DNA of 64,000 nucleotides from Ignavibacteriota bacterium (GTDB lineage: Bacteria > Bacteroidota > Ignavibacteria > Palsa-1295). Of the stretch, positions 3,063 to 17,686 are shown piece after piece (the first letter of the stretch is position 1; each line of letters starts with the position of its first letter). Location: NCBI GenBank assembly GCA_963787835.1, contig CAWBEI010000003.1:224001-288000 (forward strand), in the 5' to 3' direction. The translations under genes were made by a program, and so were the position numbers. The notes under the pieces are model-generated. The model was not told the DNA's origin. It saw only the letters and a list, made by a program, of their open reading frames with translations, and did not search any database.

Positions 3063-6000
3063 TTACCTTGATCGTTGTGCGGCTTCATTTTGCTTGCGAA
3101 TTCGCCGGCAGAGCGTCGTGATCGCACCGCGCGCGATCTCGATGTTATCTATCATCAGATCGTAGAACACTTCCCGATCGAGCTTGAGGAGGGTCGTTTC
3201 TTCCAGTGCCGTTACGGATGCGGATCGAGGCTCGGGATCCAACAGCGCCATTTCACCTACCACATCCCGTGCGTGTAATTCGGAAAGTTGATGTTCGCCA
3301 TCATGAACGCGCACACGCCCCTCGACAATGATATACAGGCAGCTTCCTGTCTCGCCTTTCTCGATGATTCGCTCCCCAACAGAGGCATGAACTTCCTCCA
3401 GCGCCTGCGCAATATGAGAAAGCACCGGATCGGGCGTTTCGTGAAACAAATCGACCGTCTTTAATAAAATGACGCGTTCAAATAAATGTGGCATAGGTTC
3501 CTCGTCCTTGGACTTGTAGTAAAAATGAGCGACCGCAAGGGTCCAGGGTTCGTAAAAATGGTCATCATCGCGCAGGAGATTGTTCCATGCTATCTCGTGG
3601 GAGCCGTGTTCAAGATCCTGTGGAATGATGTCAGCCAGCGTGGTATGGTCGGTAATATGTGCTGAATGCTTAGCTCCATCATGATTGGTCCTTCTAAGAA
3701 AAAGCGTTGCTTCGAGCAATGCAACCACTTCTTTCGCAAGATCCGGAGCGAGGATCTGATCCAGAACTTCAAATGCGTTGGCATGATGCAGATGTTCGCC
3801 GATGAGCAGGCTGTCACGCACCCGGCGTAGCGTTACAGGATCATATTCAAGCTCCAATAGCATCAGCACGCGATCTGCCGCTTGTGCGACCTCATGCGAA
3901 AGCGTGCTTCGAAATAATTCCGACACTGGAAGATTTGTTGAATGTCCATTTGTGGATTCAAGAGAATGAATGATGGTAATAAGCTTGCGGACGCGCCGAA
4001 GTTCCTCAGCTATGATACGTGTGATGATATCAGAATCGTTTATTCGGATACCATTGGTCGTAAGCGCATGCAACGCAGCCAATCGCAGGGTTCCCAGCAC
4101 TCGCGGTGCTTCGTCGATGGTACCACCTACGGTTCCACCGCTGGACGGATTCGGCCAGGTTAACAGTGCGACCAATAACTGAATGGATTGTTCGGAGAAT
4201 GGTGCGTGCTCACCCTTACTCCAATGACCGAGCAGGCGCGCAATTCGTGGTAAGCGGGCACTTCCGACATGTCCCTCCTCGATGTGGTGCGTGAGGTGCG
4301 GCAGCACCGCATTGCCAAAGGCCTGCAGAGCATGCTCGATAAGGATGAGCGTTTGCCGAGTGGTTGCGGGTTGTAGATACAGATCGAGTATTGGTTCGAT
4401 AAGTTGCGGATGAGCAACCAGCGCGGATGCTCGAATCGCAGCAAGCCGCACTTCCGAATTCTCGTCTCGCAGAAGCGCAAGAAGGGAATGATAGAACTGA
4501 CGAACCCCAACTCCGCCTATGATCTTCGCGGCAGAAACGCGCACGCTGGGATCGGTGCTGTGCGCCATGGACTGCACGAATTCACCAGCCACAAGCACCC
4601 CGTCGATCCCTTTATGCTTGATGAGCCCGGCAAGCAGCCCTTCTCGCACGGGGAGTCGTTCATCATCGAGCCACTGCTTCATATCTTCGGCCTCAAGTTC
4701 CGGAGAAACGGCAGAATAGACCCGCAACGTTTGGCCCAGCATCGTTCCATCGTCGTGATTCAGATCGATTTTAGCGTTCGTTAACACAGCATCTAAAATG
4801 GTCTTAGCGCGAAGGCGTTCGGCGGCAGAAAATTCAAGATCATCCACGCGGCGTAGGGCAGCGATTCGAACGGACAATTCACCGTGTGCGAGCAAGTTGG
4901 GTAAGGCGTCGATGAGGAACGTATGTTCGGTCGGAGGAATAAGATGCAAGGCATATTCCACTTCCATCGGATGCGCGCTATGCAGCTTTTCTAAGACCAT
5001 GCTTCGCGCGGCATGATCCCAGACCAGCGCTGATGACATAAGCCGCCGGTGCTTCAACGCCCGGAGCACTGTTCTCTTGTATTCGCGGTCGAACCAAAGA
5101 AGTGTTCCCGCCCACGCTGCAAACACCCCAAGCATTACAAAACTGATCCCACGCAACGAGAAACCAATAGAAACGGAGAGCACATATAACAGGATGGACG
5201 CTGCACCTAACGCAAGCGGTTCAATGATTCCACCAATGGCTTGATGCCCGCGATGCTGAAGGTGTTTCGAGAGCGGTTGCATGGCAATGGCCAATGCAGG
5301 AACCTGAACGGCCTCCGACCACAACTCGACAAGCAACATTCCACCAATGAACGCCCAGATCATGGCGGGTGCGGCACCTGCGACCGATGCAGAATTTGCG
5401 CTAAAGATTAGTCCAGCAACGGTGGTAATGAGTAGTCCGATGGGCAGCACGATGATCGTTCTTGCGAGTCCGAACTTACTGAAGAGTCGCCCAACGACAC
5501 CGACTTTGAGCAACAGACTCGCCAGTTTTGCTACTCCGAGGAACAGTCCGATGAAATTTGCAACTTGTGTGAGGCTTTCTTTTCGTTCCTCGATCTCTCG
5601 AAGAAATCCAAAGTCGATACAGGTCGTTGCAAAGAGCGCCAGGAACGCAACCAGAGACACACTTGCGATATACGTATCCCGCCAAATGAACGTGAGTGAG
5701 TTTTGCTTCCCGTCATGATGCTTCGGCTGTTCGAACGCCGTTCTGGAATGATGTTTTTGTTTCCCATCTGTATGCATTGCCATCAGATGCGAGTAATTTG
5801 AAATGATTTGCTGTAGCACAAAGACACTTATCGCTGTTCCACCGGCGGAGAGAATCAACAACTGCGGTACTTTCAAGAACGAGGTCAATAGCGGGACAGA
5901 AAAATAGCCGAGTATTTTTGCAAGGAACGATCCTGAATCTATCAAACTGAACAGCCGCTTCCCTTGCCGGACATCGAAAAGATGCATGGGAAGCCCCCAA

Positions 6001-6440
6001 AACTCACTTTGAGCTACGAAGATCATAATACGGGACCACACCAATAGCCCAAACGCAATGGCGAGCGGGGGAATCTGCAAGGCGTATTCCTCCATTGCGT
6101 AGAAGGCGACCGTTCCGGCCACGAGCAGGATCAGCGCAAGCCGGAGCACTTGAAATTGACCGATCGCATGCTCTAAGCGTTCGGAGCTATACCCGATCAG
6201 AAGTTCAAGAACCGCAGCCGCCGCAAACGCGCACGGAAGATACACGATCGGAAAGGAATCAAGAAAGATCGGAAGTGCTGCTGAGATCAGATACGCAACC
6301 CCGACCCCGAGAAAGAACGAGTGCGTCCAGAGCAGCGCCACGGGGCGCATCTCATGCGAACGCAAGTTCAGGGTTTGAAGAACTACTCGCTTACCCCAGG
6401 ATGTTCGAAAAGAGCCTTGACGATTTGGAGATGAATCCAT
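3063..6440 (-). CDS. Npt1/TLC-like MFS nucleotide-transporter domain + HEAT repeats + C-terminal cyclic-nucleotide-binding domain
   Basis: About 12 TM helices with 'FWG...LFDVRQGKRLF', HEAT repeats 'LLRDENSEVRLAAIRA', cNMP motif 'GEMALLDPEPRSASV'. Start moved to ATG 6440 to avoid overlap with the divergent gene. Confidence 0.85.
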   Translation of the reverse strand: MDSSPNRQGSFRTSWGKRVVLQTLNLRSHEMRPVALLWTHSFFLGVGVAYLISAALPIFLDSFPIVYLPCAFAAAAVLELLIGYSSERLEHAIGQFQVLRLALILLVAGTVAFYAMEEYALQIPPLAIAFGLLVWSRIMIFVAQSEFWGLPMHLFDVRQGKRLFSLIDSGSFLAKILGYFSVPLLTSFLKVPQLLILSAGGTAISVFVLQQIISNYSHLMAMHTDGKQKHHSRTAFEQPKHHDGKQNSLTFIWRDTYIASVSLVAFLALFATTCIDFGFLREIEERKESLTQVANFIGLFLGVAKLASLLLKVGVVGRLFSKFGLARTIIVLPIGLLITTVAGLIFSANSASVAGAAPAMIWAFIGGMLLVELWSEAVQVPALAIAMQPLSKHLQHRGHQAIGGIIEPLALGAASILLYVLSVSIGFSLRGISFVMLGVFAAWAGTLLWFDREYKRTVLRALKHRRLMSSALVWDHAARSMVLEKLHSAHPMEVEYALHLIPPTEHTFLIDALPNLLAHGELSVRIAALRRVDDLEFSAAERLRAKTILDAVLTNAKIDLNHDDGTMLGQTLRVYSAVSPELEAEDMKQWLDDERLPVREGLLAGLIKHKGIDGVLVAGEFVQSMAHSTDPSVRVSAAKIIGGVGVRQFYHSLLALLRDENSEVRLAAIRASALVAHPQLIEPILDLYLQPATTRQTLILIEHALQAFGNAVLPHLTHHIEEGHVGSARLPRIARLLGHWSKGEHAPFSEQSIQLLVALLTWPNPSSGGTVGGTIDEAPRVLGTLRLAALHALTTNGIRINDSDIITRIIAEELRRVRKLITIIHSLESTNGHSTNLPVSELFRSTLSHEVAQAADRVLMLLELEYDPVTLRRVRDSLLIGEHLHHANAFEVLDQILAPDLAKEVVALLEATLFLRRTNHDGAKHSAHITDHTTLADIIPQDLEHGSHEIAWNNLLRDDDHFYEPWTLAVAHFYYKSKDEEPMPHLFERVILLKTVDLFHETPDPVLSHIAQALEEVHASVGERIIEKGETGSCLYIIVEGRVRVHDGEHQLSELHARDVVGEMALLDPEPRSASVTALEETTLLKLDREVFYDLMIDNIEIARGAITTLCRRIRKQNEAAQRSR

Positions 6441-6483
6441 TATCGAACGATAACAAGCATAGAACGCGATGCGTCCCAGCACC

Positions 6484-7086
6484 ATGATTGTTCCTCCGCA
6501 TTCCCTCGTACCCCAGATCGAAACATTCTCACGCGAGATCATCGCCACATTACCGGCCGGATATACCTACCATTGTATCGAACACACCGAGATGGTCGTG
6601 AGGCACACAACGATGATAGCGGATTCGATCCAGCTAACCGAAGAGCAGACGGCACTGCTCATCATGGCGGCCTGGCTTCACGATGTGGGGTTTCGCATCC
6701 GGTATAAGGGGCATGAAAGAGATAGCTGCGTTGCTGCACGAGAAAAGCTTGCGGATGTACTAACTCCCGAGGATATGGCGACCATTGAAGAAGCCATTAT
6801 GGGAACGGAGATTCCTCAGCGCGCGACCCATCCTATCTCACAAGCGCTTTGCGACGCCGATCTGTTGTACTTAGGTGGCGATCACTTCTTTGATTGGAGC
6901 GCGCGGCTGCGCGAAGAGCATCAGAAGGTTCTTGGACGTGAATACAGCGATCAACAATGGATCGAATTTAACATTGACTTCGTCCGCAATCATACATTCT
7001 TCACAGCATTTGCTCGGGAACATTATGGCGAGGGTCTTTTAAAAAATCTGGATGCGTTGGAACTGATGAGAGCGGAGTCCCTCTGA
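6484..7086 (+). CDS. HD-domain metal-dependent phosphohydrolase
   Basis: 'YHCIEHT...AAWLHDVG...HE..S...LCDADL' HD motif set. Confidence 0.85.
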   Translation: MIVPPHSLVPQIETFSREIIATLPAGYTYHCIEHTEMVVRHTTMIADSIQLTEEQTALLIMAAWLHDVGFRIRYKGHERDSCVAAREKLADVLTPEDMATIEEAIMGTEIPQRATHPISQALCDADLLYLGGDHFFDWSARLREEHQKVLGREYSDQQWIEFNIDFVRNHTFFTAFAREHYGEGLLKNLDALELMRAESL

Positions 7087-7456
7087 TCGAAGGCTTCTCC
7101 GACTTGGAAGCCCCTCTCACATGTGTTGTTTGGAGCAAAGCATCTTGGTTATTTCACACAACAATCATTTGAAGTATTGAGGAGGAAGGTTTACTCACTG
7201 GAATCACAGACCGGCTCATGTCGGATATTTGTAATATTTGTCAGTCAACTAATGTCAAAAGATAAACTATTAAATATCCATAAACAGTTGATTATATTTA
7301 ACTTAAGCGGAGGACCTGGGATTCGAACGTCAAGTGCCGGAAGACAAACGATACCATTCTTCTTTACGTCTCTATGTTGCTACTATCCATTTGAACCATG
7401 GGTCCGGCTTGTGAATTTTGACAAATCGAACTTTTTTGATCTATTCAACTCTTTGC

Positions 7457-8044
7457 ATGACGATGGACTCGCGAACCGATCTCGACCTCCTAACTGCAAT
7501 TCAGGAACGCGCAGATAACAGCGCGTTGGGAGCTCTCTACGACCGTTATGGGCGAAAGGTCTATGTATTGGCCTATGGTATTTTGCGGTGCAAACCGGAC
7601 GCAGAGGACATACTGCAAGAGGTATTTGAGCGCGTTTGGAAGAAAAGCCACACCTATAATAGTACGCTTGGTAGCGTGAAAAGCTGGCTGCTCCGTATCA
7701 CACATAATCGTTCTATAAATAGGCTTAAAGCGCGTGCAATACGGGCAACCCATTCGGGCTACACTTCAGAGGGTGCGTATGGAGATTCCTTTACCGGCAG
7801 GATGCCAGAGAACATTTTAGATGCTTCCGAGATCGACATGGATTTCGACATTGGGATATTTGTTCGCAAAGCACTTGACTATTTACCCGAAGAGCAACGG
7901 CGGCTGATCGAACTGGCATTCTTCAAAGGGCTATCCCATTCGGAAATTGCTGAAACTGAGCAGATTCCGCTTGGCACCGTGAAGACTCGGATACGCAGCG
8001 GCATCGCTCGATTACGAACGGAATTAAAATTTTTAAGAACGTAG
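7457..8044 (+). CDS. ECF sigma factor (SigK/RpoE-like)
   Basis: Region 2 'DAEDILQEVF..VW...KSWLLRITHNRSIN', region 4 'GLSHSEIA...IPLGTVKTRIR'. Start is ATG 7457 or 7463. Confidence 0.92.
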   Translation: MTMDSRTDLDLLTAIQERADNSALGALYDRYGRKVYVLAYGILRCKPDAEDILQEVFERVWKKSHTYNSTLGSVKSWLLRITHNRSINRLKARAIRATHSGYTSEGAYGDSFTGRMPENILDASEIDMDFDIGIFVRKALDYLPEEQRRLIELAFFKGLSHSEIAETEQIPLGTVKTRIRSGIARLRTELKFLRT

Positions 8045-8084
8045 CGAACATTTGCGATAAAAATAGTAATAAGGAACAATACAA

Positions 8085-8113
8085 GAATCCGAGAGCATAG
8101 AGATAGCTGTAAT
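8085..8113 (+). promoter_or_regulatory. Putative ECF promoter GAATCC-N17-TGTAAT upstream of the anti-sigma gene
   Basis: The same bipartite motif recurs at 8842 and 13535. Confidence 0.5.
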
Positions 8114-8149
8114 AAAAAGAATAAGCTCTCGATCAGCGATCAGCACATA

Positions 8150-8782
8150 ATGGCGGAACAGAAACAACAGAGCAATGGAAACGGTCAAGACCCTTTAATG
8201 GGCAAAGAGCCACTAATGGGCAAAGAGCCACGCATCTCCAATGATGCGTTGCTCGGCTATCTTCAGGGCGAACTTCGGCTTCCGGACATGGAAGCGTTCG
8301 AGGCCGCCTCTGTAAATGATCCTGAACAAATGGAGTCGATTCGAGTCTATTCCGAATTGCTCGATTCCTTAACGGATCTATTGCCTGAACCTGAGATGCC
8401 TATCGGAGACGATATGCGGACGCGGATAATGTCTATTGCAGACTCCAAGCCGATCTCCCAAGTCATTCGTGCTCACCAAGGCCAGTGGATCGATTCTGGT
8501 ATGCCGGGATTTGAGTTCAAACTGCTGTATCAGGATCCGGAATCGAAGAAGAGTACGGTCCTCGCTCGTATCGCGGCAGGTGCACGAATGCCGCATCATC
8601 GCCATCAAGGCACAGAGGAATGTCTTATTATCGAAGGCAGCTTATGGACGGATGGCGTTCTGCTTGAAGCCGGAGATTTTATCGTGACGCAGGATCAAAC
8701 CGAGCATGAAGATACGTGGTCGCCTCATGGAGCGCTGGCACTTATAAAAACATATCTGGAGGATGAAATATTATCGAGTTAA
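8150..8782 (+). CDS. Anti-sigma factor with ChrR-like cupin domain
   Basis: Directly after the ECF sigma gene. N-terminal 'LLGYLQGEL' anti-sigma helix and cupin 'PHHRHQGTEE...EG...GD...H'. Confidence 0.82.
   Translation: MAEQKQQSNGNGQDPLMGKEPLMGKEPRISNDALLGYLQGELRLPDMEAFEAASVNDPEQMESIRVYSELLDSLTDLLPEPEMPIGDDMRTRIMSIADSKPISQVIRAHQGQWIDSGMPGFEFKLLYQDPESKKSTVLARIAAGARMPHHRHQGTEECLIIEGSLWTDGVLLEAGDFIVTQDQTEHEDTWSPHGALALIKTYLEDEILSS
8196..8231 (+). repeat. Perfect 18-bp tandem duplication (TAATGGGCAAAGAGCCAC x2) encoding PLMGKE-PLMGKE
   Basis: Read directly from sequence. Confidence 0.95.
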
Positions 8783-8804
8783 CCATTTTAGCTTTGTTTC
8801 TGAG

Positions 8805-8838
8805 AAAGGCCGGAGAAAACTCCGGCCTTTTGTATTTT
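8805..8838 (+). terminator. Intrinsic terminator after the anti-sigma gene
   Basis: AAAGGCCGGAG-aaaa-CTCCGGCCTTT followed by a T-rich tract. Confidence 0.8.
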
Positions 8839-8841
8839 GAT

Positions 8842-8869
8842 AAATCCAGTGACCCAATGTAGGTGTATT
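8842..8869 (+). promoter_or_regulatory. Putative ECF promoter AAATCC-N16-TGTATT upstream of the DUF4331 operon
   Basis: Lies just after the terminator, so the operon needs its own promoter. Matches the motifs at 8085 and 13535. Confidence 0.6.
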
Positions 8870-8941
8870 AGTCAGAGCAATCCTCTTTTTTATCGTCAGG
8901 CAAAAGAGTGGAAAGTCTTTTAACTAATCACAAACATTTCT

Positions 8942-11026
8942 ATGCGTACACTTGCTAACTCATTCCGACTGCTCTTACCCTCAGCGGCGGTGCTTGCAGT
9001 AGTTCTCTTTGCCGCTCCTCAGGCCCAGGCGTCGAGCCATCGCGAAGCGCCACTGATCTCGAACGATCCCCTTGCGGATAACACGGATCTCTATGCCTTC
9101 GTATCTCCGGACGATCCGAATATGGTCACGATCATCGCGGACTACATCCCGTTTGAAGCTCCGCAAGGCGGACCGAACTTCGCAACGTTCGGGACAAACA
9201 TTCATTATGAAGTCCACATCAAAAATAATGCGATGACGGCAGGTGATGACATCACCTACCGGTTCACATTTTCCCAAACGAATCAGGATCCGACCACTTT
9301 CTTCAATATTCGTCTCGGAAAGCAAAATCTGATGACGACGTATGATTGCGAGAAATCAACCGATGGTGGAAACACCTGGACGACGATCGTGGCAAATGGA
9401 ACGGTTCCACCGCCGAACATCGGACCGCGTTCGATCGAGGGTGCTGCTGGACTTAATACGCCTTACGCGACCTTGATGCAAAATGCCGTTGCGAACGCTT
9501 CTGGCACTGGCGGCGAGACGATCTTTTGCGGACCGATCGATGACCCATTCTTTGTCGATTTAGGTGGAATCTTCGATCTAGGCGGATTTAATAAGCATGG
9601 CAAGGACGGTCTTGCCGGTTTCAACTGCCACACGATCGCGCTCAAAATTCCTATCTCTTCGCTTCAGAAAGATGGAAAGACTGTTTCGGAGGCTGCTAAT
9701 ATCTTAGACGGTAATTTCGTGATCGGCGTGTGGGCTTCTGCTTCGCGCATGAAATTCCGCACGATCAATGGTGATGGCACATACACCGATAGCGGTTCCT
9801 ATGTGCAGGTCAGCCGTCTTGGAATGCCACTTACGAACGAAGCCATCATTCCGATCGGAATGAAAGACAAGTGGAACTCTGGAACTCCCTATACCGATGC
9901 ATCCGGTGCCTACAATGCTAATTTCGTAAACCCGGAATTAGCACTCTATGTCGGAAATGGCGCGTATAGCGCTGCCGTTCCAGGACTTGCAAATCTTCGC
10001 CTCGATACCAATTCGCTCGGCGGAGGCTTCGATTTCCGAAATGGAAAGATAGGACTTTATGGCCTCTATGGTGCTGCGGCAACAAAGGGCACTGCCCTTG
10101 ATACTGCAAGTTTCGGGAAGATCCTTCTGGAACCAAATGCTCCCCGTTCGGTCGATCTACTGCCGATCTTCTACACCGGCGTGCCGAATATCGCGCCGTA
10201 TCAACTTGCAACCGGCAAAGCAGGTAATCCACTCGCAGCAGGTAAACCGTTCATCAATAATTTCCTGCCGACGCTCGGCGATATGCTGCGATTGAACATG
10301 GCCGTTCCCGCTACACCGCGAAACAGCCCTGATTTCAGCAGCGAAGGCCTCATTCAGGCGGCTGTGCTTGGCTTGACCGATTCACGCTTCAATGTGAATG
10401 CCACACTTCAGGATATTCCCAACATGGATGGGTTCCCGAACGGGCGACGCCTGGAAGACGATGTTACGACCATCGAAATGCAAGCCGTCGGCGGCCTGGT
10501 CTTGAATGCTATCGGCCTCTGGACGGACGATTATGTGCCCGGCTCATCGAAATCGCCGGTAACTCCATACCTTCTTGGCAAATTAGGCTGGGACGCCGGC
10601 GTAACGAAAAACGATGTACCGCTCCAAGCAACGTTTCCATACGTTGCCGCACCGCATCGTGGTTCGCTCGGACTAATGACCGATACTTCCACGATCGTCA
10701 TGGGAACTGCGGATGTTCACAATATCCCAGAGTCCATTGGTATTCATGCACCGGGCGGTCAGTTCACCGGTCAGAATTATCCGAATCCTGCGACAAGCCA
10801 ATCGACAACATTCCAATTCCATATCTCCGCCGTAGCTCCGGTGAGTGTAACGATCGTCGATGTCAATGGGATGCAGGTTGCGACGGCTTTCGCGCAACAG
10901 TGCACTCCTGGCGATTACACCTCCGCGTGGCAACTCCCACAAGGGCTTGCCTCCGGTGATTATTTTGCGGTGCTCTCGGTGGATGGGGAGCAAGTTTCGA
11001 CAATGCGATTTGTCGTAAACAAATAA
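8942..11026 (+). CDS. DUF4331 family protein with T9SS type-A sorting domain
   Basis: Signal peptide ending AQA, then 'SSHREAP...DNTDLYAF', 'DDPFFVDL', 'QVSRLGMPL.NE', 'GFPNGRRLEDDV', and CTD 'QNYPNP...SGDYF'. Confidence 0.9.
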   Translation: MRTLANSFRLLLPSAAVLAVVLFAAPQAQASSHREAPLISNDPLADNTDLYAFVSPDDPNMVTIIADYIPFEAPQGGPNFATFGTNIHYEVHIKNNAMTAGDDITYRFTFSQTNQDPTTFFNIRLGKQNLMTTYDCEKSTDGGNTWTTIVANGTVPPPNIGPRSIEGAAGLNTPYATLMQNAVANASGTGGETIFCGPIDDPFFVDLGGIFDLGGFNKHGKDGLAGFNCHTIALKIPISSLQKDGKTVSEAANILDGNFVIGVWASASRMKFRTINGDGTYTDSGSYVQVSRLGMPLTNEAIIPIGMKDKWNSGTPYTDASGAYNANFVNPELALYVGNGAYSAAVPGLANLRLDTNSLGGGFDFRNGKIGLYGLYGAAATKGTALDTASFGKILLEPNAPRSVDLLPIFYTGVPNIAPYQLATGKAGNPLAAGKPFINNFLPTLGDMLRLNMAVPATPRNSPDFSSEGLIQAAVLGLTDSRFNVNATLQDIPNMDGFPNGRRLEDDVTTIEMQAVGGLVLNAIGLWTDDYVPGSSKSPVTPYLLGKLGWDAGVTKNDVPLQATFPYVAAPHRGSLGLMTDTSTIVMGTADVHNIPESIGIHAPGGQFTGQNYPNPATSQSTTFQFHISAVAPVSVTIVDVNGMQVATAFAQQCTPGDYTSAWQLPQGLASGDYFAVLSVDGEQVSTMRFVVNK

Positions 11027-11115
11027 GATCCATCCTCTATCTCGCTTGGTTGCGCGTGGCATCTCGGATGCCACGCGCACCCTTCCGAAAAAATAACCAT
11101 ATCATTTTTATTGCA

Positions 11116-12456
11116 ATGAATCGTAGATCAATGCTCTGGATCGTTCCGATCGCAGTAGTAGCAATCGCTTCCATCGTGTTCCTTGCTTGGCCTTCTAAAA
11201 AAACGGCGCTTGCTATGCCGGATCTCCTGCCCCGACCTGGAGAAACAACCCCTTCTGCGGAATTCTTGAAAAGCGAGGCGGATGTAAAAAAATACCGCAT
11301 AGAGCTTGCTGAACATCCAGATAAAAGTGAGGATTATGTTAAGCTTGCCGAGATTTATTTGCAAGAGTCGCGGGTGACGGCGAATCACCATTTCTACATT
11401 CCAGTGGCTTCCGCGCTTCTCGACGAAACGCTTCGTCGGGACACGAATAATTTCGAGGCGCTCGTCACGAACGCGGGACTTCAAATGACGCTGCATCAAT
11501 TTCAGAAGGCCGATGACATGGTCACCAGCGCTATTCGTCAAAATCCGTATAACGCCACTTCGTATGGTGTGCTCTGCGATGCGAATGTTGAGCTTGGGAA
11601 TTATCATGAAGCGGTGACCGCATGTGACAGCATGATGTCCAAGCGCCCCGATCTCCGTTCCTACGCACGAGCATCGTATTTGCGTCAGCTTATGGGAAAG
11701 GACTCCTCGGCCATTCAGGCCATGCTGCTGGCCGCCGATGCCGGTCTTTCCGGAAGCGAGAGCCGATCCTGGGCGCTCTATCAGCTTGGTAACCTTTTTA
11801 TTCAAGCTGGCAAGTTCGACACGGCCGCGTTTATTTTCAATGGGATTTTAGAAGAGCGCCCTGGTTATGCCTATGCAAAGAGCGGACTTGCAATGATCCA
11901 CCTTGCGAAGGGCGAATATACGGATGCGATCCGCGAACTTGCATCGGCCATGCAGGCATTGCCGGAACATATTTTTCTCGAACAGCTTGCCGACGTTTAT
12001 ATCGCAATGGGAGATACCGCGAATGCGCGGACGTTAGAAACCAGGGTATTCGCCGCATTCGATCAGCATGAACAGGATGGCTGGAATGTCGATCGCGAAT
12101 ACGCGCAGTTTGCCGCCGACCATAATGTGCGATTGGGCGAAGCTGTCACTCGAGCAGAACGGGAATGGAAACGCCGCCCGAATAATGCGGATGCCATTGA
12201 AACATACGCGTGGTCGCTCTTGAAAAATGGCGATGCTCAAAAAGCGGAAACCATCATGGAGTTCGGATTGAAGTCCGGGATCGTCACACCGACGATGCAC
12301 TATCATGCAGCAGTTATTTATGCGTCGTTGGGCAGAACTGCCGAGGCTCAGGAAGAATGGCGATCCGCCATCCTTCGAGTGCCGTGTGTAAAACCGGCGC
12401 TGGTGCGTGACGCGAAATCGTTCCTGACGAACAGGGAACGCCTTTCCATGAACTAA
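11116..12456 (+). CDS. Membrane-anchored TPR protein (DUF4331-associated type)
   Basis: N-terminal hydrophobic anchor and multiple TPR motifs. Start set at ATG 11116. Confidence 0.8.
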   Translation: MNRRSMLWIVPIAVVAIASIVFLAWPSKKTALAMPDLLPRPGETTPSAEFLKSEADVKKYRIELAEHPDKSEDYVKLAEIYLQESRVTANHHFYIPVASALLDETLRRDTNNFEALVTNAGLQMTLHQFQKADDMVTSAIRQNPYNATSYGVLCDANVELGNYHEAVTACDSMMSKRPDLRSYARASYLRQLMGKDSSAIQAMLLAADAGLSGSESRSWALYQLGNLFIQAGKFDTAAFIFNGILEERPGYAYAKSGLAMIHLAKGEYTDAIRELASAMQALPEHIFLEQLADVYIAMGDTANARTLETRVFAAFDQHEQDGWNVDREYAQFAADHNVRLGEAVTRAEREWKRRPNNADAIETYAWSLLKNGDAQKAETIMEFGLKSGIVTPTMHYHAAVIYASLGRTAEAQEEWRSAILRVPCVKPALVRDAKSFLTNRERLSMN

Positions 12457-12467
12457 CGCGCATACCA

Positions 12468-12962
12468 ATGCTCTCGTTGATCTTTGCACGGATGTTTTTA
12501 CTATGTGCCTTTCATGCGGTGCACATTAGTTACGGTGATTTTTCCGTCACGCAAAATTCAGTGCATGACCGATCATCCGTGCTGAGTGGTAGTTTTACGT
12601 TTTACAAAGACGATTGGGCGAAGGCAACCGAGCATTGGTTCGGTCGATCGATGACAAACGAGCCGAAGGCAGTACAGGACTGGATGGAATCCGAATATCT
12701 CAAGGGGCATGTCCGCTTTTGGTTGGATGGCTACAGCACTCCGGTTCACTTCGATCTGCGGGTAAAAGAAGATGCGGCGCAATCGATCACTTACGAGTTT
12801 ACCGCTCCAGTTTCCTCCGATCATCATGTGGTCATCATAGATTCGCGCGCGGTGCTTTCTGAATATAGCGATCAGATGAATTTGATGACCGTGAAAGTTC
12901 GCGGCAAATCGACGAACATTATTTTTACAAGCGATCATACAACCTCAATCATAAAACTTTAA
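12468..12962 (+). CDS. DUF6702-like exported protein
   Basis: Short signal followed by 'FHAVHIS', C-terminal 'EYSDQMNL' motif, position before HupE/UreJ. Confidence 0.6.
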   Translation: MLSLIFARMFLLCAFHAVHISYGDFSVTQNSVHDRSSVLSGSFTFYKDDWAKATEHWFGRSMTNEPKAVQDWMESEYLKGHVRFWLDGYSTPVHFDLRVKEDAAQSITYEFTAPVSSDHHVVIIDSRAVLSEYSDQMNLMTVKVRGKSTNIIFTSDHTTSIIKL

Positions 12963-12967
12963 CGATC

Positions 12968-13525
12968 ATGTTCACACAATTTATCCAGATCGGGTTCCAG
13001 CATATTCTCGAGGGGTATGATCACTTGCTTTTTCTTACGGCACTTGTGCTCGTAAGCCGCCGTTGGCAGGATCTACTAAGTGTTATTTCCGCATTCACGA
13101 TCGCACATACAACGACGATCGTGCTGTGCGTGTTCGGCGTACTCTCGCTTCCGTCCCTTCTTACAGAATCACTTATTGCGGCCTCGATCGCTTATGCAGG
13201 AATTGAAAATATGTTTCGAAAAAATTTCGATACGCGTTGGGTGATCGCCGGAGCATTCGGGCTTATTCATGGCGCGGGGTTTTCCGGGCATCTTGTCAGT
13301 GTGTTACAACCGTTGCTTGGGACGGGCCAAGTATGGGGACCGATCTTCGGTTTTACCTTTGGCATCGAAATGGGGCAGCTTGCTGTGATCACGCTCATCT
13401 ATCCCGCAGTGATGCTGGCTCGTTATTTCGGGAGAGAGCGGGTTTTTGTGCGAGCATTCTCCGCGCTTATTGCGATGGCAGGTACCGCCCTTCTAATAAT
13501 GCGGCTCTCCGGCTCTTCTTTGTGA
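12968..13525 (+). CDS. HupE/UreJ family membrane protein (putative Ni/Co permease)
   Basis: 'GFQHILEGYDHLLF', 'AFTIAHT', 'FGLIHGAGF', 'GIEMGQL' motifs. Confidence 0.9.
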   Translation: MFTQFIQIGFQHILEGYDHLLFLTALVLVSRRWQDLLSVISAFTIAHTTTIVLCVFGVLSLPSLLTESLIAASIAYAGIENMFRKNFDTRWVIAGAFGLIHGAGFSGHLVSVLQPLLGTGQVWGPIFGFTFGIEMGQLAVITLIYPAVMLARYFGRERVFVRAFSALIAMAGTALLIMRLSGSSL

Positions 13526-13534
13526 TCGGATCGA

Positions 13535-13562
13535 ACATCCATTCGACGCAATGGGCTGTATA
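13535..13562 (+). promoter_or_regulatory. Putative ECF promoter ACATCC-N16-TGTATA upstream of the TonB-dependent receptor
   Basis: Third copy of the motif, within a 48-bp intergenic gap. Confidence 0.6.
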
Positions 13563-13573
13563 ACATTCGTCAC

Positions 13574-15631
13574 ATGATACGAATGTTAATCCTCCGAACC
13601 TCCTTCGCAGCTCTATTCATTTCCGCGGCTCTTTCAGGGTTATGGAATCCGGCACACGCCCAATCCAAAGTAGACACGATCCATGAAAAGGAGCAAGTAG
13701 TCACCGTCACCGCAGAGCGCCCGCTTTCTGCGGCCTCGGACAAAAGTTTCCGCGATTCTGATTTTGAGCTTCGACCACGTAACTCCGCGCAAGATATGCT
13801 CCGGCTCGTTCCGGGACTGGTGCTTGCACAGCATGCGGGCGGCGGAAAAGCGGAACAGATCTTTTTGCGCGGATTCGATGCCGATCACGGAACCGACGTG
13901 AATATCTCCGTTGACGACGTTCCAGTTAATATGCTTAGTCATGGACATGGGCAAGGTTATGCCGATCTTCATTTTATCATACCAGAAACGATCCAGGAAG
14001 TAGATGTGGTCAAAGGTCCGTATTCTCCTCGCTATGGCGATCTTGCAACGGCAGGGGTGATTGCCTTCCAAACGAAAGATTCGCTCAAATATAACGAGTT
14101 GAAACTTGAAGGTGGGTCCTTCGATGAATATCGAGCGCTCGCGCTCATCAAAGGCCCATCTTCACAAACGATCCAATCCTATTTTGGCACCGATCTATTC
14201 TATACGCGAGGACCGTTCGACGTTGCCCAGGATTTTCATCGTCTTAATCTGTTCGCAAAGACCGATGCTGCGCTCAGCGACGATGCAAAACTTTCCGCGA
14301 GTCTTTTTTCTTTTAGTTCCTCCTGGAATGCGAATGGCCAGATTCCGGAGCGCGCCGTCGCAGATGGCCTCATCGACCGTTTCGGTTCGCTCGATTCAAC
14401 AGAAGGCGGCGCAACATCACGCACCACCGCCAACATCACATACACATCAGGAGGAGAATCCCCTCTGACACTTACCGCCTCTTACACCGATTATCATTTT
14501 CGGCTGTTTAGCGATTTTACTTTTTATCTTGTTGATACCACTCAAGGAGACGAAGTGGAACAGACAGATTCACGCACCCTGCTTGCGTTTCGGGGGGAAC
14601 GAACACTTCCCTGGATCTTAGGCGACGCCATCATGAATACAAAGATCGGTGTCAGCACACGAAGCGATGATATTCAAGCTGCCATCTATCATGATTCTGC
14701 GCGCGTCCGACTCAACAATGTAGTAGATGCGGCCATTCAGGAGCGGGAAACAGGGCCATATATTCAGCAGGAGATCGGGCTTGGATGGATTCAATTCATT
14801 CTTGGGCTTCGCGCAGACTATGCAACGGTCGATGTACAGAATTTGCTAAATTCCGGCGCACAGCCAAACGGTATCAACCAGCAGATCATCCTTTCGCCGA
14901 AAGCGAATGCAAGCATTCCAATAAGCAATGACGCCACAGCATTTCTGAATTTTGGCTATGGGTTTCATTCCAACGACGCGCGTGCCATTGTGCAATCTCC
15001 GGGAATTCCGACCTTACCGCGAGCGCTTGGCAGCGAGATCGGTTTACGGTATGGCGAACCTTCGGAATTCTTTTCCTGCTCATCCTCGCTATGGTATCTT
15101 TACCTTCAAAGCGAACTTGTCTGGGACGGCGATGAAGGAACACTTATTGCACAAGGAAGTACACGTAGGGAAGGCATCGATCTCGAAGCACGCATTCGTC
15201 CAACAGAATGGCTCACGTTCGGGGGGGATGCAACGATTTCCGAGGGGCGGTTCGTCGATTCTGCAGTTGGCAATAATTACATTCCTCTTGCACCAAATTT
15301 TACGCTTACGGGAAATGCCGTCGCCAAGTGGGATGATTTTTCCGCTGCCTTGCGCTTGAGACACGTCGGCGACCGACCTGCCAATACCGACAATTCTATT
15401 GTTGCAAAGGGGTATTCGATTTTCGATCTTTCACTCACCTATCATACAGGGCCCTATGAATTGTACGCAAACGTCGAGAACGTATTCAACACAGTTTGGA
15501 ACGAGGCTCAATTCGCGACCGTAAGCCGTATTTATGTTCACGGCGTGCTTGAGGCAAATCCGGTGGATGATCTCAGCTTTACGGCTGGAACCCCAATCTC
15601 CGTAAGGACAGGAATCGCCTTTAGTTTTTGA
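13574..15631 (+). CDS. TonB-dependent receptor with His-rich plug
   Basis: TonB-box-like 'VTVTA', plug 'QHAGGGKAEQIFLRGFDADHG...SHGHGQGYADLHF', 'VVKGPYS..YG', C-terminal Phe. Confidence 0.92.
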   Translation: MIRMLILRTSFAALFISAALSGLWNPAHAQSKVDTIHEKEQVVTVTAERPLSAASDKSFRDSDFELRPRNSAQDMLRLVPGLVLAQHAGGGKAEQIFLRGFDADHGTDVNISVDDVPVNMLSHGHGQGYADLHFIIPETIQEVDVVKGPYSPRYGDLATAGVIAFQTKDSLKYNELKLEGGSFDEYRALALIKGPSSQTIQSYFGTDLFYTRGPFDVAQDFHRLNLFAKTDAALSDDAKLSASLFSFSSSWNANGQIPERAVADGLIDRFGSLDSTEGGATSRTTANITYTSGGESPLTLTASYTDYHFRLFSDFTFYLVDTTQGDEVEQTDSRTLLAFRGERTLPWILGDAIMNTKIGVSTRSDDIQAAIYHDSARVRLNNVVDAAIQERETGPYIQQEIGLGWIQFILGLRADYATVDVQNLLNSGAQPNGINQQIILSPKANASIPISNDATAFLNFGYGFHSNDARAIVQSPGIPTLPRALGSEIGLRYGEPSEFFSCSSSLWYLYLQSELVWDGDEGTLIAQGSTRREGIDLEARIRPTEWLTFGGDATISEGRFVDSAVGNNYIPLAPNFTLTGNAVAKWDDFSAALRLRHVGDRPANTDNSIVAKGYSIFDLSLTYHTGPYELYANVENVFNTVWNEAQFATVSRIYVHGVLEANPVDDLSFTAGTPISVRTGIAFSF

Positions 15632-15749
15632 CGAGGTGTTGGAGAACCATTAATTAATTCTTTCCAATATGTGGTCTGCATGGGCAAATCGGTAGACCAT
15701 TTTTATCCCCACAATCCCGAGATGAGCAAAAGCATTGACTCGACAGAAT

Positions 15750-15826
15750 TTGTTGCCACATTGTTGCCAAACAAATTAAATTAGAAAATTTTGAAAGGCA
15801 ATAAATCATTGATATTGAATGACTTA
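15750..15826. repeat. Direct repeat TTGTTGCCA x2 and imperfect palindrome TAAATCATT-N7-AATGACTTA at the tRNA 3' end (att-site-like)
   Basis: Direct repeats at 15750-15758 and 15761-15769; inverted repeat at 15802-15826. Confidence 0.55.
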
Positions 15827-15839
15827 CGGCGATTTTCTG

Positions 15840-15921
15840 CGGAGGACCCGGGATTCGAACTCGGAAGCCCTTGCGGGCGGCAGTTTTCAAGACTGCTGCA
15901 GTACCATTGTGCCAGTCCTCC
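15840..15921 (-). tRNA. tRNA-Ser(UGA)
   Basis: GGAGGAC/GTCCTCC acceptor stem, anticodon arm GCAGT-CTTGAAA-ACTGC, long variable arm, TTCGAAT T-loop, G discriminator. CCA is not encoded. Confidence 0.95.
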
Positions 15922-16021
15922 ATTCTGCGGGTCGGTAACGCCTAAGCCGGCGTGGGAGTGCCAAACGGCAAGTGTAATTGAGGAGTTTGGAATCAAAGCG
16001 GGCAAAATTTCGATAAAAGAG

Positions 16022-16029
16022 TATCTTTG
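16022..16029 (+). promoter_or_regulatory. Bacteroidota-type -7 promoter box (TATCTTTG) upstream of pckA
   Basis: Matches TAnnTTTG; similar boxes at 17780, 31361 and 47087. Confidence 0.45.
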
Positions 16030-16066
16030 TAGCTACAACGGGCCTTGTGCCCCTTAATTTTACATT

Positions 16067-17686
16067 ATGAATACTCCTGAAACTCACGCAGCAGACGTCC
16101 AATCAGCCCAGAGCCTCCTCCATAAGAATCTTTCCGACCATGGTGTTTCTCATAGCCAGATCAATTTTAATTTAGGCACGGAAGAGCTTTATGCCGAAGC
16201 GCTTTCGCGTGGCGAGGGGCAGCTTGCTGCTAACGAAGCACTCGTCGTCTCGACCGGAAAATTTACTGGCCGCTCGCCGAAAGATAAGTTTATCGTCGAA
16301 AATGCACCGAGCAAATCCAATGTCTGGTGGGGCAAAACCAATCAGCCGATAAGCGAGGAGAATTTCGAGCGGCTGTATCAGAAAATGGTGAAAGCGATGA
16401 ACGAAAAAGAACTTTTCGTCGCCGATCTTTTCGCTGGCGCGGAAAAGAAATACCAGCTTCCGCTTCGTGTAATAAATGAGTATGCGTGGCATAATCTTTT
16501 CTGTCACGATCTTTTCATCCGCCCCGCGCAGGCCGAGCTTGCCGAGCATCGCCCGCAATTCACGATCATCGCGCTGCCAAGCGTGAAGGCCGATCCTGCA
16601 ACGGACGGTACCAACTCAGAGACGTTCATTCTGCTCAATTTCGAGCGCGGACTTATTCTCATCGGTGGAACGGAATACTCCGGCGAGATGAAAAAAGGGA
16701 TTTTTACCACACTAAATTATATGCTTCCGCTCAAGGGAGTGATGTCTATGCACTGCTCTGCAAATATAGGTGAAGCAGGTGATGTGGCACTCTTCTTTGG
16801 TCTTTCCGGCACCGGCAAAACGACACTTTCCGCAGATCCAAAACGACGCCTCATCGGTGATGATGAACATGGATGGTCGGATAACGGTGTGTTCAACTTC
16901 GAAGGCGGATGCTACGCGAAGTGCATCAAACTTTCGAAAGAGCAGGAACCACAAATCTGGAATGCGATCAAGCGCGGCGCTGTGCTCGAAAATGTTGTGC
17001 TCGATGCCAACCGTGTCCCGGATTACAACGACACCTCGAAAACGGAGAACACGCGCTGCGCCTACCCATTGGATTTCATCGAGAATTCCGTCGAGCCTTC
17101 TGTGGGTGGGCATCCGAAAAATATTATTTTCCTCACAGCAGATGCATTCGGCGTACTTCCGCCGATCTCAAAGCTTACCAAAGAGCAAGCGATGTATCAT
17201 TTTATCTCTGGATATACAGCAAAGGTCGCTGGCACCGAACGTGGCGTGACCGAACCGGAGCCGAATTTCTCCACATGCTTCGGCGCACCCTTTATGGTGC
17301 ATCATCCGAATGTGTATGCCGGTCTGCTTGGAAAGAAGATCGAGGAGCACAATGTCCGTTGCTGGCTTGTCAATACCGGATGGACGGGCGGACCGTATGG
17401 CGTGGGTAAACGCATGCACTTGCCTTACACGCGCGCGATGGTCGAGCAAGCGCTGGCTGGCAATCTCGATAATGTAAAGACGGTAAAAGATCCAATTTTC
17501 GGCATGGAAATTCCGCAGCAAGTTCCCGGAGTGCCGGATGAAGTGCTCAACCCGCGAAATACGTGGGCCGACAAATCGGCCTACGATAAGCAAGCTGCTG
17601 ATCTAGCCCGCCGCTTCGTGGAAAACTTCAAGAAATATGAAGAAGGGACAAGCGAGGCCATCAAGAATGCTGCCCCAAAGGCGTAA
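16067..17686 (+). CDS. pckA: Phosphoenolpyruvate carboxykinase (ATP)
   Basis: 'TGRSPKDK', '[13 protein letters not shown]', 'LIGDDEHGW', 'NFEGGCYAK'. Confidence 0.98.

Follow-up and report, generated by a model that had tools for sequence, protein, structure and literature searches.

A conserved DUF4331-TPR gene module that may gather nickel in the bacterial envelope and load a predicted secreted metalloenzyme

What do the genes at positions 7457-15631 of the window (the whole 64,000-nucleotide stretch that was analysed) do with metal, and for which client? The initial annotation had read them as seven co-oriented genes that handle nickel or copper across the envelope. ORF calls and profile matches bear out the gene count: all seven co-oriented ORFs are real, and they match an ECF sigma factor, Cupin_7, DUF4331 (here carrying a T9SS type A tail), TPR, DUF6702, HupE_UreJ_2 and a TonB plug. 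Metal handling is likewise supported, with evidence that favours nickel (or cobalt) over copper. Our preferred reading, to which we give a little less than an even chance, is that a conserved DUF4331-TPR module would gather Ni(II) in the envelope and load it into DUF4331, a predicted secreted metalloenzyme. The metal would probably be nickel; copper is unlikely, and cobalt less likely still.

The locus contains at least two transcription units, because an intrinsic terminator-like 12-bp hairpin (8804-8831, + strand), which closes the sigma-cupin unit, parts these two genes from the other five. Another hairpin, of 13 bp and lacking a U-tract, lies between DUF4331 and TPR (11051-11079, + strand) and would stabilise the DUF4331 message or reduce read-through. 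An Rfam search of positions 6000-17000 returned a tRNA-Ser as its sole match and no riboswitch.

DUF4331 and TPR are the fixed core of the module: among the 88 related loci that are not truncated, 87 have a TPR gene no farther than 5 kb from DUF4331. Within the same distance we found the receptor in 56, HupE in 33 and a NicO-family protein in 5 of the 88 loci; at least one of these nickel-type parts is present in 76 loci and none in 12. Of 401 genomes sampled from the phylum, 55 carry the module, which also occurs in two other phyla. TPR follows DUF4331 in 6/7 plasmid regions of Proteobacteria and Actinomycetota, where the permease slot holds a His1-headed HupE fusion (four regions) or a His1-headed NicO protein (one region); unrelated Ni/Co-type membrane proteins swap in one slot across phyla. 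The His1-headed NicO protein scores much better against the model of the exporter RcnA (E 1e-30 to 1e-36) than against that of the importer, a result that fits outward delivery. All seven genes stand together in only 1/113 loci of a first survey and in one further locus of the same genus. The proposed linkage of the genes is conserved, with a linked DUF4331-TPR core in the genomes surveyed, but the seven-gene set is not a conserved unit. The module's gene set is widely conserved, and we found no description of it in openly searchable full text, where DUF4331 and PF14224 gave no match either.

The DUF4331 protein (694 aa; 8942-11026, + strand) consists of a signal peptide (residues 1-30), a core (31-571) and a T9SS type A tail (613-693; TIGR04183, 30.6 bits against a cut-off of 23). 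SprA scores above its cut-off in the genome and, with both signal peptide and sorting domain, DUF4331 qualifies as a T9SS type A substrate. The sequence AQA|SSH at residues 28-33 suggests a cleavage that would leave Ser-Ser-His (9032-9040, + strand) at the mature N-terminus, an ATCUN-type site, that is, a free N-terminus of the form Xaa-Xaa-His. Xaa-Xaa-His stands at the presumed mature start in 165 of 178 ORFs, His3 follows the signal-peptide site in all 135 aligned rows (86/86 distant and 49/49 near), and the residue at -1 is small in 81/81 distant DUF4331 proteins having both leader and motif. Further residues are near-invariant (R262 and R472, each 137/137, together with D375, D19, Q259, N269 and K278), and these Arg, Asp, Gln, Asn and Lys look like an active site.

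The DUF4331 fold is modelled with confidence and has no clear solved relative. The AlphaFold model built with an alignment has a pLDDT of 95.4 (a single-sequence run, pLDDT 35, was discarded); neither phmmer nor a profile search found a sequence relative in the PDB, and Foldseek gave no match at E <= 0.001. Thiocyanate dehydrogenase, which filled the top Foldseek rows, was rejected (TM 0.09), and the Atlas yielded nothing beyond clusters of DUF4331 itself and TonB clusters bearing no name. Could DUF4331 then be a surface protein that binds Ca or glycans through a CBM9/DOMON-like sandwich, the metal genes being merely co-regulated neighbours? Its best structural matches by VIA-align point that way: Sas6 for the whole 545-residue model (Z 6.3, rmsd 4.3, 189 aligned), then glucodextranase, BACUNI_03838 and CBM9 (Z 4.3-4.9). 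The many Asp may bind structural Ca, as happens in CBM9-like folds, some DUF4331 proteins carry CHRD and dockerin extensions, and the 12 loci with no nickel-type part nearby agree with it. Yet Z values of 4.3-6.3 do not rise above what the tool itself describes as background; EBDH gamma reaches Z 5.0 (rmsd 3.8, 142 aligned), and antibody domains score alike. A binder of this sort would also leave the invariance of His3, always two residues past the cleavage site, and the exchange of Ni/Co-type membrane proteins in one slot to be accounted for, and we consider it very unlikely.

Downstream of DUF4331 lies the TPR protein (446 aa; 11116-12456, + strand), which has an N-terminal membrane anchor or signal and a single invariant His (codon at 11494). 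It is followed by the DUF6702 protein (164 aa; 12468-12962, + strand; PF20420, 35.6 bits against a cut-off of 24), with FHAVH at residues 15-19, invariant H16 and H19 and a KDD motif. Counted from the presumed mature start, the invariant columns of its subfamily are H1, H4, K32, D33 and D34 (17/17 rows), with no further conserved His. The presumed cleavage is CAF|H here, non-canonical at -1; relatives have ALA|H, CSA|H or AQA|H, also RF|H and PK|H. Processing to His1 is uncertain in our protein because the preceding residue is Phe. The family had been taken to have no assigned function, a statement now outdated: according to PMC12537917, the relative PaDUF6702 binds Ni with a Kd of 5.6 pM and shows no oxidase or peroxidase activity. 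No sequence match for DUF6702 was found in the PDB.

The HupE/UreJ-2 membrane protein (185 aa; 12968-13525, + strand) has neither signal peptide nor N-terminal His. Its conserved His are H12 (39/40), H19 (40/40), H47 (39/40) and H101 (40/40), H108 being kept in 5/40; the His motifs listed earlier for five of the genes lie where described, except that in the permease four His are conserved instead of three. With a stop at 12962 and a start at 12968, DUF6702 and HupE are separate chains, as in 22 of the 23 genomes of the class with such a DUF6702 (the other ends at a contig edge). Since DUF6702 precedes a permease that lacks the N-terminal His carried by 37 DUF6702-free relatives, the pair resembles a split "anglerase", and DUF6702 looks like the free head of a split anglerase-like unit. 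An hhalign comparison of DUF6702 with the heads of four fused HupEs gave a probability of 7.7% and a score of 23.3 (30 shuffles reached at most 22.7).

These two proteins bear on a second alternative, cytoplasmic uptake, in which surface DUF4331 would scavenge Ni or Co by its His3 tip and pass it to the receptor, and DUF6702 would feed an importing HupE. HupE/UreJ proteins are reported Ni importers (PMC11247825), and the anglerase model (PMC12537917) is one of metal uptake, with anglerases proposed to feed HupE/UreJ; the picomolar Ni affinity of PaDUF6702 and its lack of oxidase and peroxidase activity agree with it. Import by HupE would moreover drain the periplasm and not load DUF4331, which counts against our preferred reading. 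ATCUN sites, too, mostly serve transport. On the other hand, the permease slot can hold RcnA-like proteins, monoderm Actinomycetota keep DUF4331-TPR with no receptor nearby, and a 545-residue fold with invariant Arg, Gln and Asn exceeds the needs of a mere binder.

The last gene (13574-15631, + strand) encodes a TonB-dependent receptor of a subfamily marked by QH.GGGKA.Q, DHGTD and SH.HGQG, with H87, H105, H123 and H125. Of nine regions around proteobacterial relatives, seven have Ni markers (nikR, NiCoT or hydrogenase genes) next to the receptor, these nine having been picked by organism name from 37 records, some with hydrogenase clusters already known. H87, H105, H125 and H465 are common to all nine Ni-context relatives, which in a quick tree form a separate sister clade with 30-34% identity over the full length and Asn for H133. 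The subfamily is present in 39/55 DUF4331-positive against 18/346 DUF4331-negative genomes, kin that are not independent of one another. The receptor is likely of nickel type, and its relatives' position beside nikR, NiCoT or hydrogenase genes makes nickel likelier than copper; that these are NikR/NiCoT uptake loci also speaks for cytoplasmic uptake.

Which client would such nickel serve? Only a handful of nickel enzymes are known, and hardly any is known to receive its metal outside the cytoplasm. We found no urease, NiFe hydrogenase, HypA, ARD, LarC, NikR or CbiC in the 97.9% complete genome (for NikR, PF08753, the control search was positive in 5/14). Among DUF4331-positive relatives, the only genomes that these counts cover, 38/54 lack urease, NiFe hydrogenase, LarC and Ni-SOD, the last by a search that had no positive control. 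A LarA-family gene is present; it was excluded from the possible Ni clients, as it has no larC partner and its product presumably lacks the cofactor-binding Lys. Since neither this genome nor 38/54 relatives show a classical nickel-enzyme marker, DUF4331 itself is our leading candidate for the Ni client. The same absence of NikR and of any known client, here and in those relatives, argues against cytoplasmic uptake, which we hold to be the strongest alternative but rather unlikely.

How might the module be controlled? The sigma factor (195 aa; 7457-8044, + strand) has PRK12519 and SigK as best models, both under cut-off. Beside it lies a candidate soluble anti-sigma factor with a ChrR-like cupin (8150-8782, + strand; TIGR02451, 43.9 bits, under the cut-off of 124.5), whose ligands H150/H152/E156/H186 align with ChrR 141/143/147/177 (His-x-His-x3-Glu...His). 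The ChrR N-terminal His/His/Cys/Cys zinc site is absent, the first His being at 109 and the Cys single. ChrR-type cupins had been cited as stress sensors. In 11/113 related loci, unlike here, a membrane-spanning RskA-type anti-sigma takes the place of the cupin, and 3 of the 9 cupin copies no longer have their His ligands, so an obligatory metal sensor is unlikely.

A promoter-like motif had been reported three times. ATCCA-N6/7-CMATG does occur at 7385, 8844 and 13537 in the 64 kb, as a pattern fitted to its own three sites and reaching three copies in 1/100 shuffles, but only the latter two sites have the -10 half that relatives conserve. Before DUF4331 stands AAATCC-N16-TGTAT (8842-8868, + strand; 14.2 bits), in a position kept in relatives, and before the receptor a second ECF promoter-like site (13535-13561, + strand; 9.8 bits), also present in the related loci L215, L221 and L222; the predicted ECF promoter AATCC-N16-CGTA is conserved across relatives. 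The -35-like half site ATCCA ahead of the sigma gene (7385-7400, + strand) has no matching -10 and is probably not a cognate promoter. No complete site precedes the sigma gene here or in L215, of the same genus, and the motif does so in 6/29 loci. PWM matches before rskA (12/14) and cupin (4/9) were set aside, since they overlap the sigma coding sequence or lie close to it, and a genome-wide scan lacked the specificity needed to delimit a regulon (64 sites equal or exceed the score of the site before DUF4331).

This promoter brings in a third alternative, stress defence: an RpoE/ChrR-like oxidative or envelope response in which surplus Cu or Ni would be exported by the membrane protein and kept out of the cytoplasm by binding to the His-tipped proteins. 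The motif matches TGATCC-N16-CGTA of the oxidative-stress sigma PSPTO_1043, the cupin ligands have ChrR spacing (singlet-oxygen sensing needs ChrR E147/H177), RcnA-like partners occur, and Ang domains prefer Cu (PMC12537917). An energy-driven receptor of a Ni-uptake lineage, co-located in 56/88 loci, is hard to reconcile with detoxification, and the missing ChrR zinc site, the lost cupin ligands and the replacement by RskA in 11 loci also weigh against stress defence, which we regard as improbable.

Loading of DUF4331 would, in our preferred reading, begin when some signal releases sigma from the cupin anti-sigma. Freed sigma would transcribe DUF4331-TPR-DUF6702-HupE and the receptor, which would supply the periplasm with Ni, free or chelated; at the inner membrane the DUF6702 His tip and the HupE His triad might then bind the ion and pass it on. 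Signal peptidase would expose NH2-Ser-Ser-His on DUF4331, the TPR protein, anchored in the membrane and bearing an invariant His, could act as loading chaperone, and T9SS would export loaded DUF4331 to the surface, there to act on its substrate. A bolder version, which we put forward only tentatively and think doubtful, is that secreted nickel enzymes include a class so far overlooked, of which DUF4331 is the first member, with a metal site built from the signal-peptidase-made NH2-Ser-Ser-His tip within a largely new fold, and that in Bacteroidota, Proteobacteria and Actinomycetota it is matured by a dedicated pathway made up of TPR, the His1-headed HupE or RcnA-like protein and the Ni-type receptor. 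If true, such a class would explain nickel-type transporters in many bacteria that have no known nickel enzyme. A module found mostly in genomes that lack a classical nickel enzyme points to a new metal client, for which DUF4331 is a candidate with a one-residue experimental handle, His3. The module would also give the recently described anglerase and DUF6702 proteins a physiological setting, and extend His1 "signal strapping" to His3.

The arrangement recalls CopC/CopD, whose genes accompany those of exported cuproenzymes (thiocyanate dehydrogenase or pMMO, for instance): a His1 periplasmic binder and an inner-membrane permease next to an exported metalloenzyme. The families are unrelated, however, the metal is copper rather than nickel, and TPR partner and His3 site are missing. 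The receptor shares plug motifs and four His with NikR/NiCoT/hydrogenase-linked proteobacterial receptors (for example those of C. necator pHG1 and of the Bradyrhizobium hupN-receptor-hupU region), but belongs to its own clade, under ECF control, in a genome lacking NikR and hydrogenase. For regulation the comparison systems are RpoE-ChrR (ECF11) and the SigK/RskA type (ECF18/ECF214) (PMC6852236, PMC5507510, PMC7826278 supplement); groups ECF18s13 and ECF214s1 list DUF4331 among their context genes. With RpoE-ChrR our locus shares the TGATCC-N16-CGTA-like promoter and the cupin zinc-ligand spacing; it differs in lacking the N-terminal zinc site and a complete self-promoter, the motif standing before DUF4331 and the receptor and not before sigma, and in its apparent targets at the locus, envelope metal genes. 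The "metal sequesterase" PaDUF6702 of PMC12537917 likewise matches PF20420 and has an N-terminal His behind a short leader, but holds metal by a tri-His brace (His1/His28/His32) instead of H1/H4 and KDD, and such genes lie beside M1 peptidase/HAD rather than between TPR and HupE. The anglerase (Ang-1/Ang-2)-HupE/UreJ-2 fusions of the same paper (PDB 9GCE), Ang-1 and Ang-2 themselves preferring Cu over Ni, also join a His-tipped extracytoplasmic domain to HupE/UreJ-2, and the 7/28 spacing of their modelled site His194/His201/His229 equals that of H12/H19/H47 in our HupE. Here, by contrast, head and permease are encoded separately, with DUF6702 as the head, and both belong to a DUF4331-TPR-receptor operon that has a predicted ECF promoter, a setting not described in the accessible part of that paper, whose neighbour tables give DUF4331 as counts of 1-2 only.

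Seven ORFs in the same orientation were confirmed at window positions 7457-15631, and the family assignments of the initial annotation were upheld: ECF sigma factor, candidate cupin anti-sigma factor, DUF4331, TPR, DUF6702, HupE/UreJ-2 and TonB receptor. The source genome (97.9% complete) carries one copy each of DUF4331, HupE/UreJ-2 and DUF6702, and among the nearest named relatives of its DUF4331 protein (71-73% identity) are entries under the labels Candidatus Kapaibacterium and Ignavibacteriae. A terminator (8804-8831) ends the sigma-cupin unit, a 13-bp hairpin is located 3' of DUF4331, and a tRNA-Ser(TGA) gene (15839-15921, minus strand) lies immediately past the receptor. Other genomes of the genus have the module only patchily, with DUF6702 in 1/14 and HupE in 2/14, a pattern that may reflect gain or loss at this site. 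Upstream, the ORF at 696-3029 encodes a beta-propeller protein of BNR/Ycf48-like type that bears a weak T9SS tail. An 1161 aa membrane, HEAT and cNMP-binding protein (3063-6548, minus strand) diverges from an HD-domain gene (6469-7086, plus strand) whose longest start it overlaps; the two are possibly a cyclic-nucleotide signalling pair.

PF14224 (DUF4331) was present in 55 of the 401 genomes sampled across the phylum. Of the 54 other positive genomes, 40 contributed one region each to our survey, to which we added 74 GTDB loci; these were the best 74 of 740 matches and are therefore biased to close Bacteroidota relatives. After removal of the window and a duplicate (L138), 113 loci were left, 88 of them with at least 5 kb of downstream sequence. 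Conserved linkage was supported for part of the seven-gene set: within 5 kb of DUF4331 we found TPR in 87/88 loci and at least one Ni-type part in 76/88, but all seven genes were united in 1/113. The receptor lay within the same distance in 56/88 loci, HupE in 33/88, a NicO-family protein in 5/88 and DUF6702 in 3/88, and a nearby sigma factor was accompanied by RskA (11) or a cupin (8) in 19/113. The receptor subfamily occurred in 39/55 DUF4331-positive genomes, against 18/346 negative ones. On plasmids from other phyla, TPR followed DUF4331 in 6 of 7 regions examined, and after it came, in four Proteobacteria, a long HupE/UreJ or, in one Streptomyces, a NicO protein, each beginning with a signal peptide followed by His. 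The single invariant His of TPR was kept in 6/6 plasmid copies too. Judged by sequence and gene order, the DUF4331-TPR module is real and widespread, with apparently interchangeable Ni/Co-type transport parts. The 12/88 loci without any Ni-type part speak for a loose association of DUF4331 with metal genes, to which we give very little credence; our favoured reading, held tentatively, is that Ni is loaded onto exported DUF4331.

Surface export of DUF4331 is likely because of its T9SS tail and the presence of SprA. His3, the third residue of the predicted mature protein, followed an Ala-x-Ala-type site in 165/178 ORFs (the 13 misses being mostly fragments) and was invariant in all 135 aligned rows spanning the position, 86 of them below 52% identity. 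Split forms in other Bacteroidota, with a protein of ~217 aa starting ADH and a probable lipoprotein of 184 aa, leave the motifs unchanged. The predicted model was confident (pLDDT 95.4, pTM 0.94), and its comparison with solved structures gave no clear relative; the weak best matches include what we take to be CBM9/DOMON-like sandwiches. Tandem full-length pairs were seen in 48/99 loci (L041, L052, L074-L144), often with a recognisable T9SS tail on the second copy and none on the first, and some DUF4331 proteins carry CHRD or dockerin extensions. A conserved gene of 373-395 aa, presumably PorV-like, lies directly 5' of DUF4331 in five loci (L077, L099, L102, L140, L143).

Unguided counting gave AATC/ATCC-N16-CGTA as the top motif 5' of the first DUF4331, in 54/114 upstream regions versus 4.9 in mononucleotide shuffles. 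A PWM made from 53 of the 54 matching sites, so that scoring of the same regions is partly circular, was positive before DUF4331 in 73/114 cases, against 19/819 other genes; it was also positive at 19/100 TPR genes, and TPR genes apart from DUF4331 (L217, L218, L228) carry their own promoter-like site. The motif matches the RpoE/ChrR-type consensus listed in excerpts of PMC5507510, and in the PMC7826278 supplement, as excerpted, DUF4331 is named among the context genes for ECF18s13 and ECF214s1. We infer that the window sigma factor recognises sites of this type. The cupin has the ChrR ligands and lacks the ChrR anti-sigma zinc site, as both are described in excerpts of PMC6852236. The promoter match and the cupin ligands speak for sequestration under stress, the missing zinc site speaks against it, and we consider this reading improbable.

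Going by the gene surroundings of the receptor's relatives, the metal is more likely Ni than Cu. Relatives of the receptor were found in 37 plasmid records (tblastn). Nine regions were examined: nikR was adjacent in four, NiCoT adjacent in three and within 5 kb in one more, and hydrogenase genes were present in three, so that 7/9 had some Ni marker, 1/9 cobalamin genes and 1/9 neither. H87, H105, H125 and H465 of the window receptor are common to 9/9, and H123 to 7/9; the plasmid proteins have Asn in place of H133 and form a separate clade. In 13 loci (L077:7081-7443, L102:15057-15434, L078:13685-14080 and 10 more), small ORFs of 120-163 aa whose products terminate in a PP motif sit immediately 5' of the receptor, in two unrelated groups, one His-rich; the two that were scanned had no Pfam match. 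These ORFs may encode leader peptides or bind metal in the periplasm. Excerpts of PMC11247825 count HupE/UreJ and UreH among the Ni importers; RcnA appears there as a periplasmic Ni exporter. NicO partners headed by His1, the first residue after the predicted signal-peptide site, best matched RcnA; three short NicO partners, from genomes with hydrogenase, matched both RcnA and importer models poorly. In single chains of 726-738 aa (L119:13463-15679, L033:9410-11590), a His1 head is joined to two units, one RcnA-like (HALTPGHGKT) and a second with HALDADH.

The scarcity of known Ni enzymes speaks against import to the cytoplasm, the main alternative, which we rank below DUF4331 loading and regard as rather unlikely. 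Urease, NiFe hydrogenase, HypA, ARD, LarC, NikR and CbiC were not found in the source genome, with positive controls for each, nor was Ni-SOD, in a search without a positive control. A LarA-family gene is present (C2:896376-897659) in this genome without detected LarC, and its product appears, in our estimation, to miss the cofactor-binding residues. Among the 54 DUF4331-positive relatives, the only genomes these counts cover, urease (6), NiFe hydrogenase (8) and LarC (6) scored above cut-off in a union of 16, leaving 38 with none of the three.

The transport parts represent variations on known types, and the DUF4331-TPR core pair is uncharacterised. A leader ending in Ala/Ser-His precedes the membrane domain in 37 of 43 HupE ORFs (35 by script, two by eye), none of which has an adjoining DUF6702; four are leaderless, every one 3' of DUF6702, and the others are one cut at a contig end and one degenerate paralogue. 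The window-type DUF6702 subfamily, in 23/301 genomes of the class from three families (partly shared with the HupE count), follows TPR in 23/23 and lies directly 5' of a leaderless HupE in 22/23; in the 23rd, a contig end interrupts the locus. Leaderless HupE is not confined to this setting, since at L197 and L211-L213 neither DUF6702 nor TPR gave a match within 1.5 kb of it. DUF6702 and leaderless HupE look, from their sequences, like a split form of the anglerase, a His-tipped extracytoplasmic head fused to HupE/UreJ-2; homology between the window DUF6702 and the fused heads is borderline. According to excerpts of PMC12537917, His1 heads fused to HupE/UreJ-2 bind Cu/Ni and PaDUF6702 binds Ni (5.6 pM). 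Compared with the proteins as described there, the window permease has identical His spacing, whereas the window DUF6702 lacks the His28/His32 of PaDUF6702.
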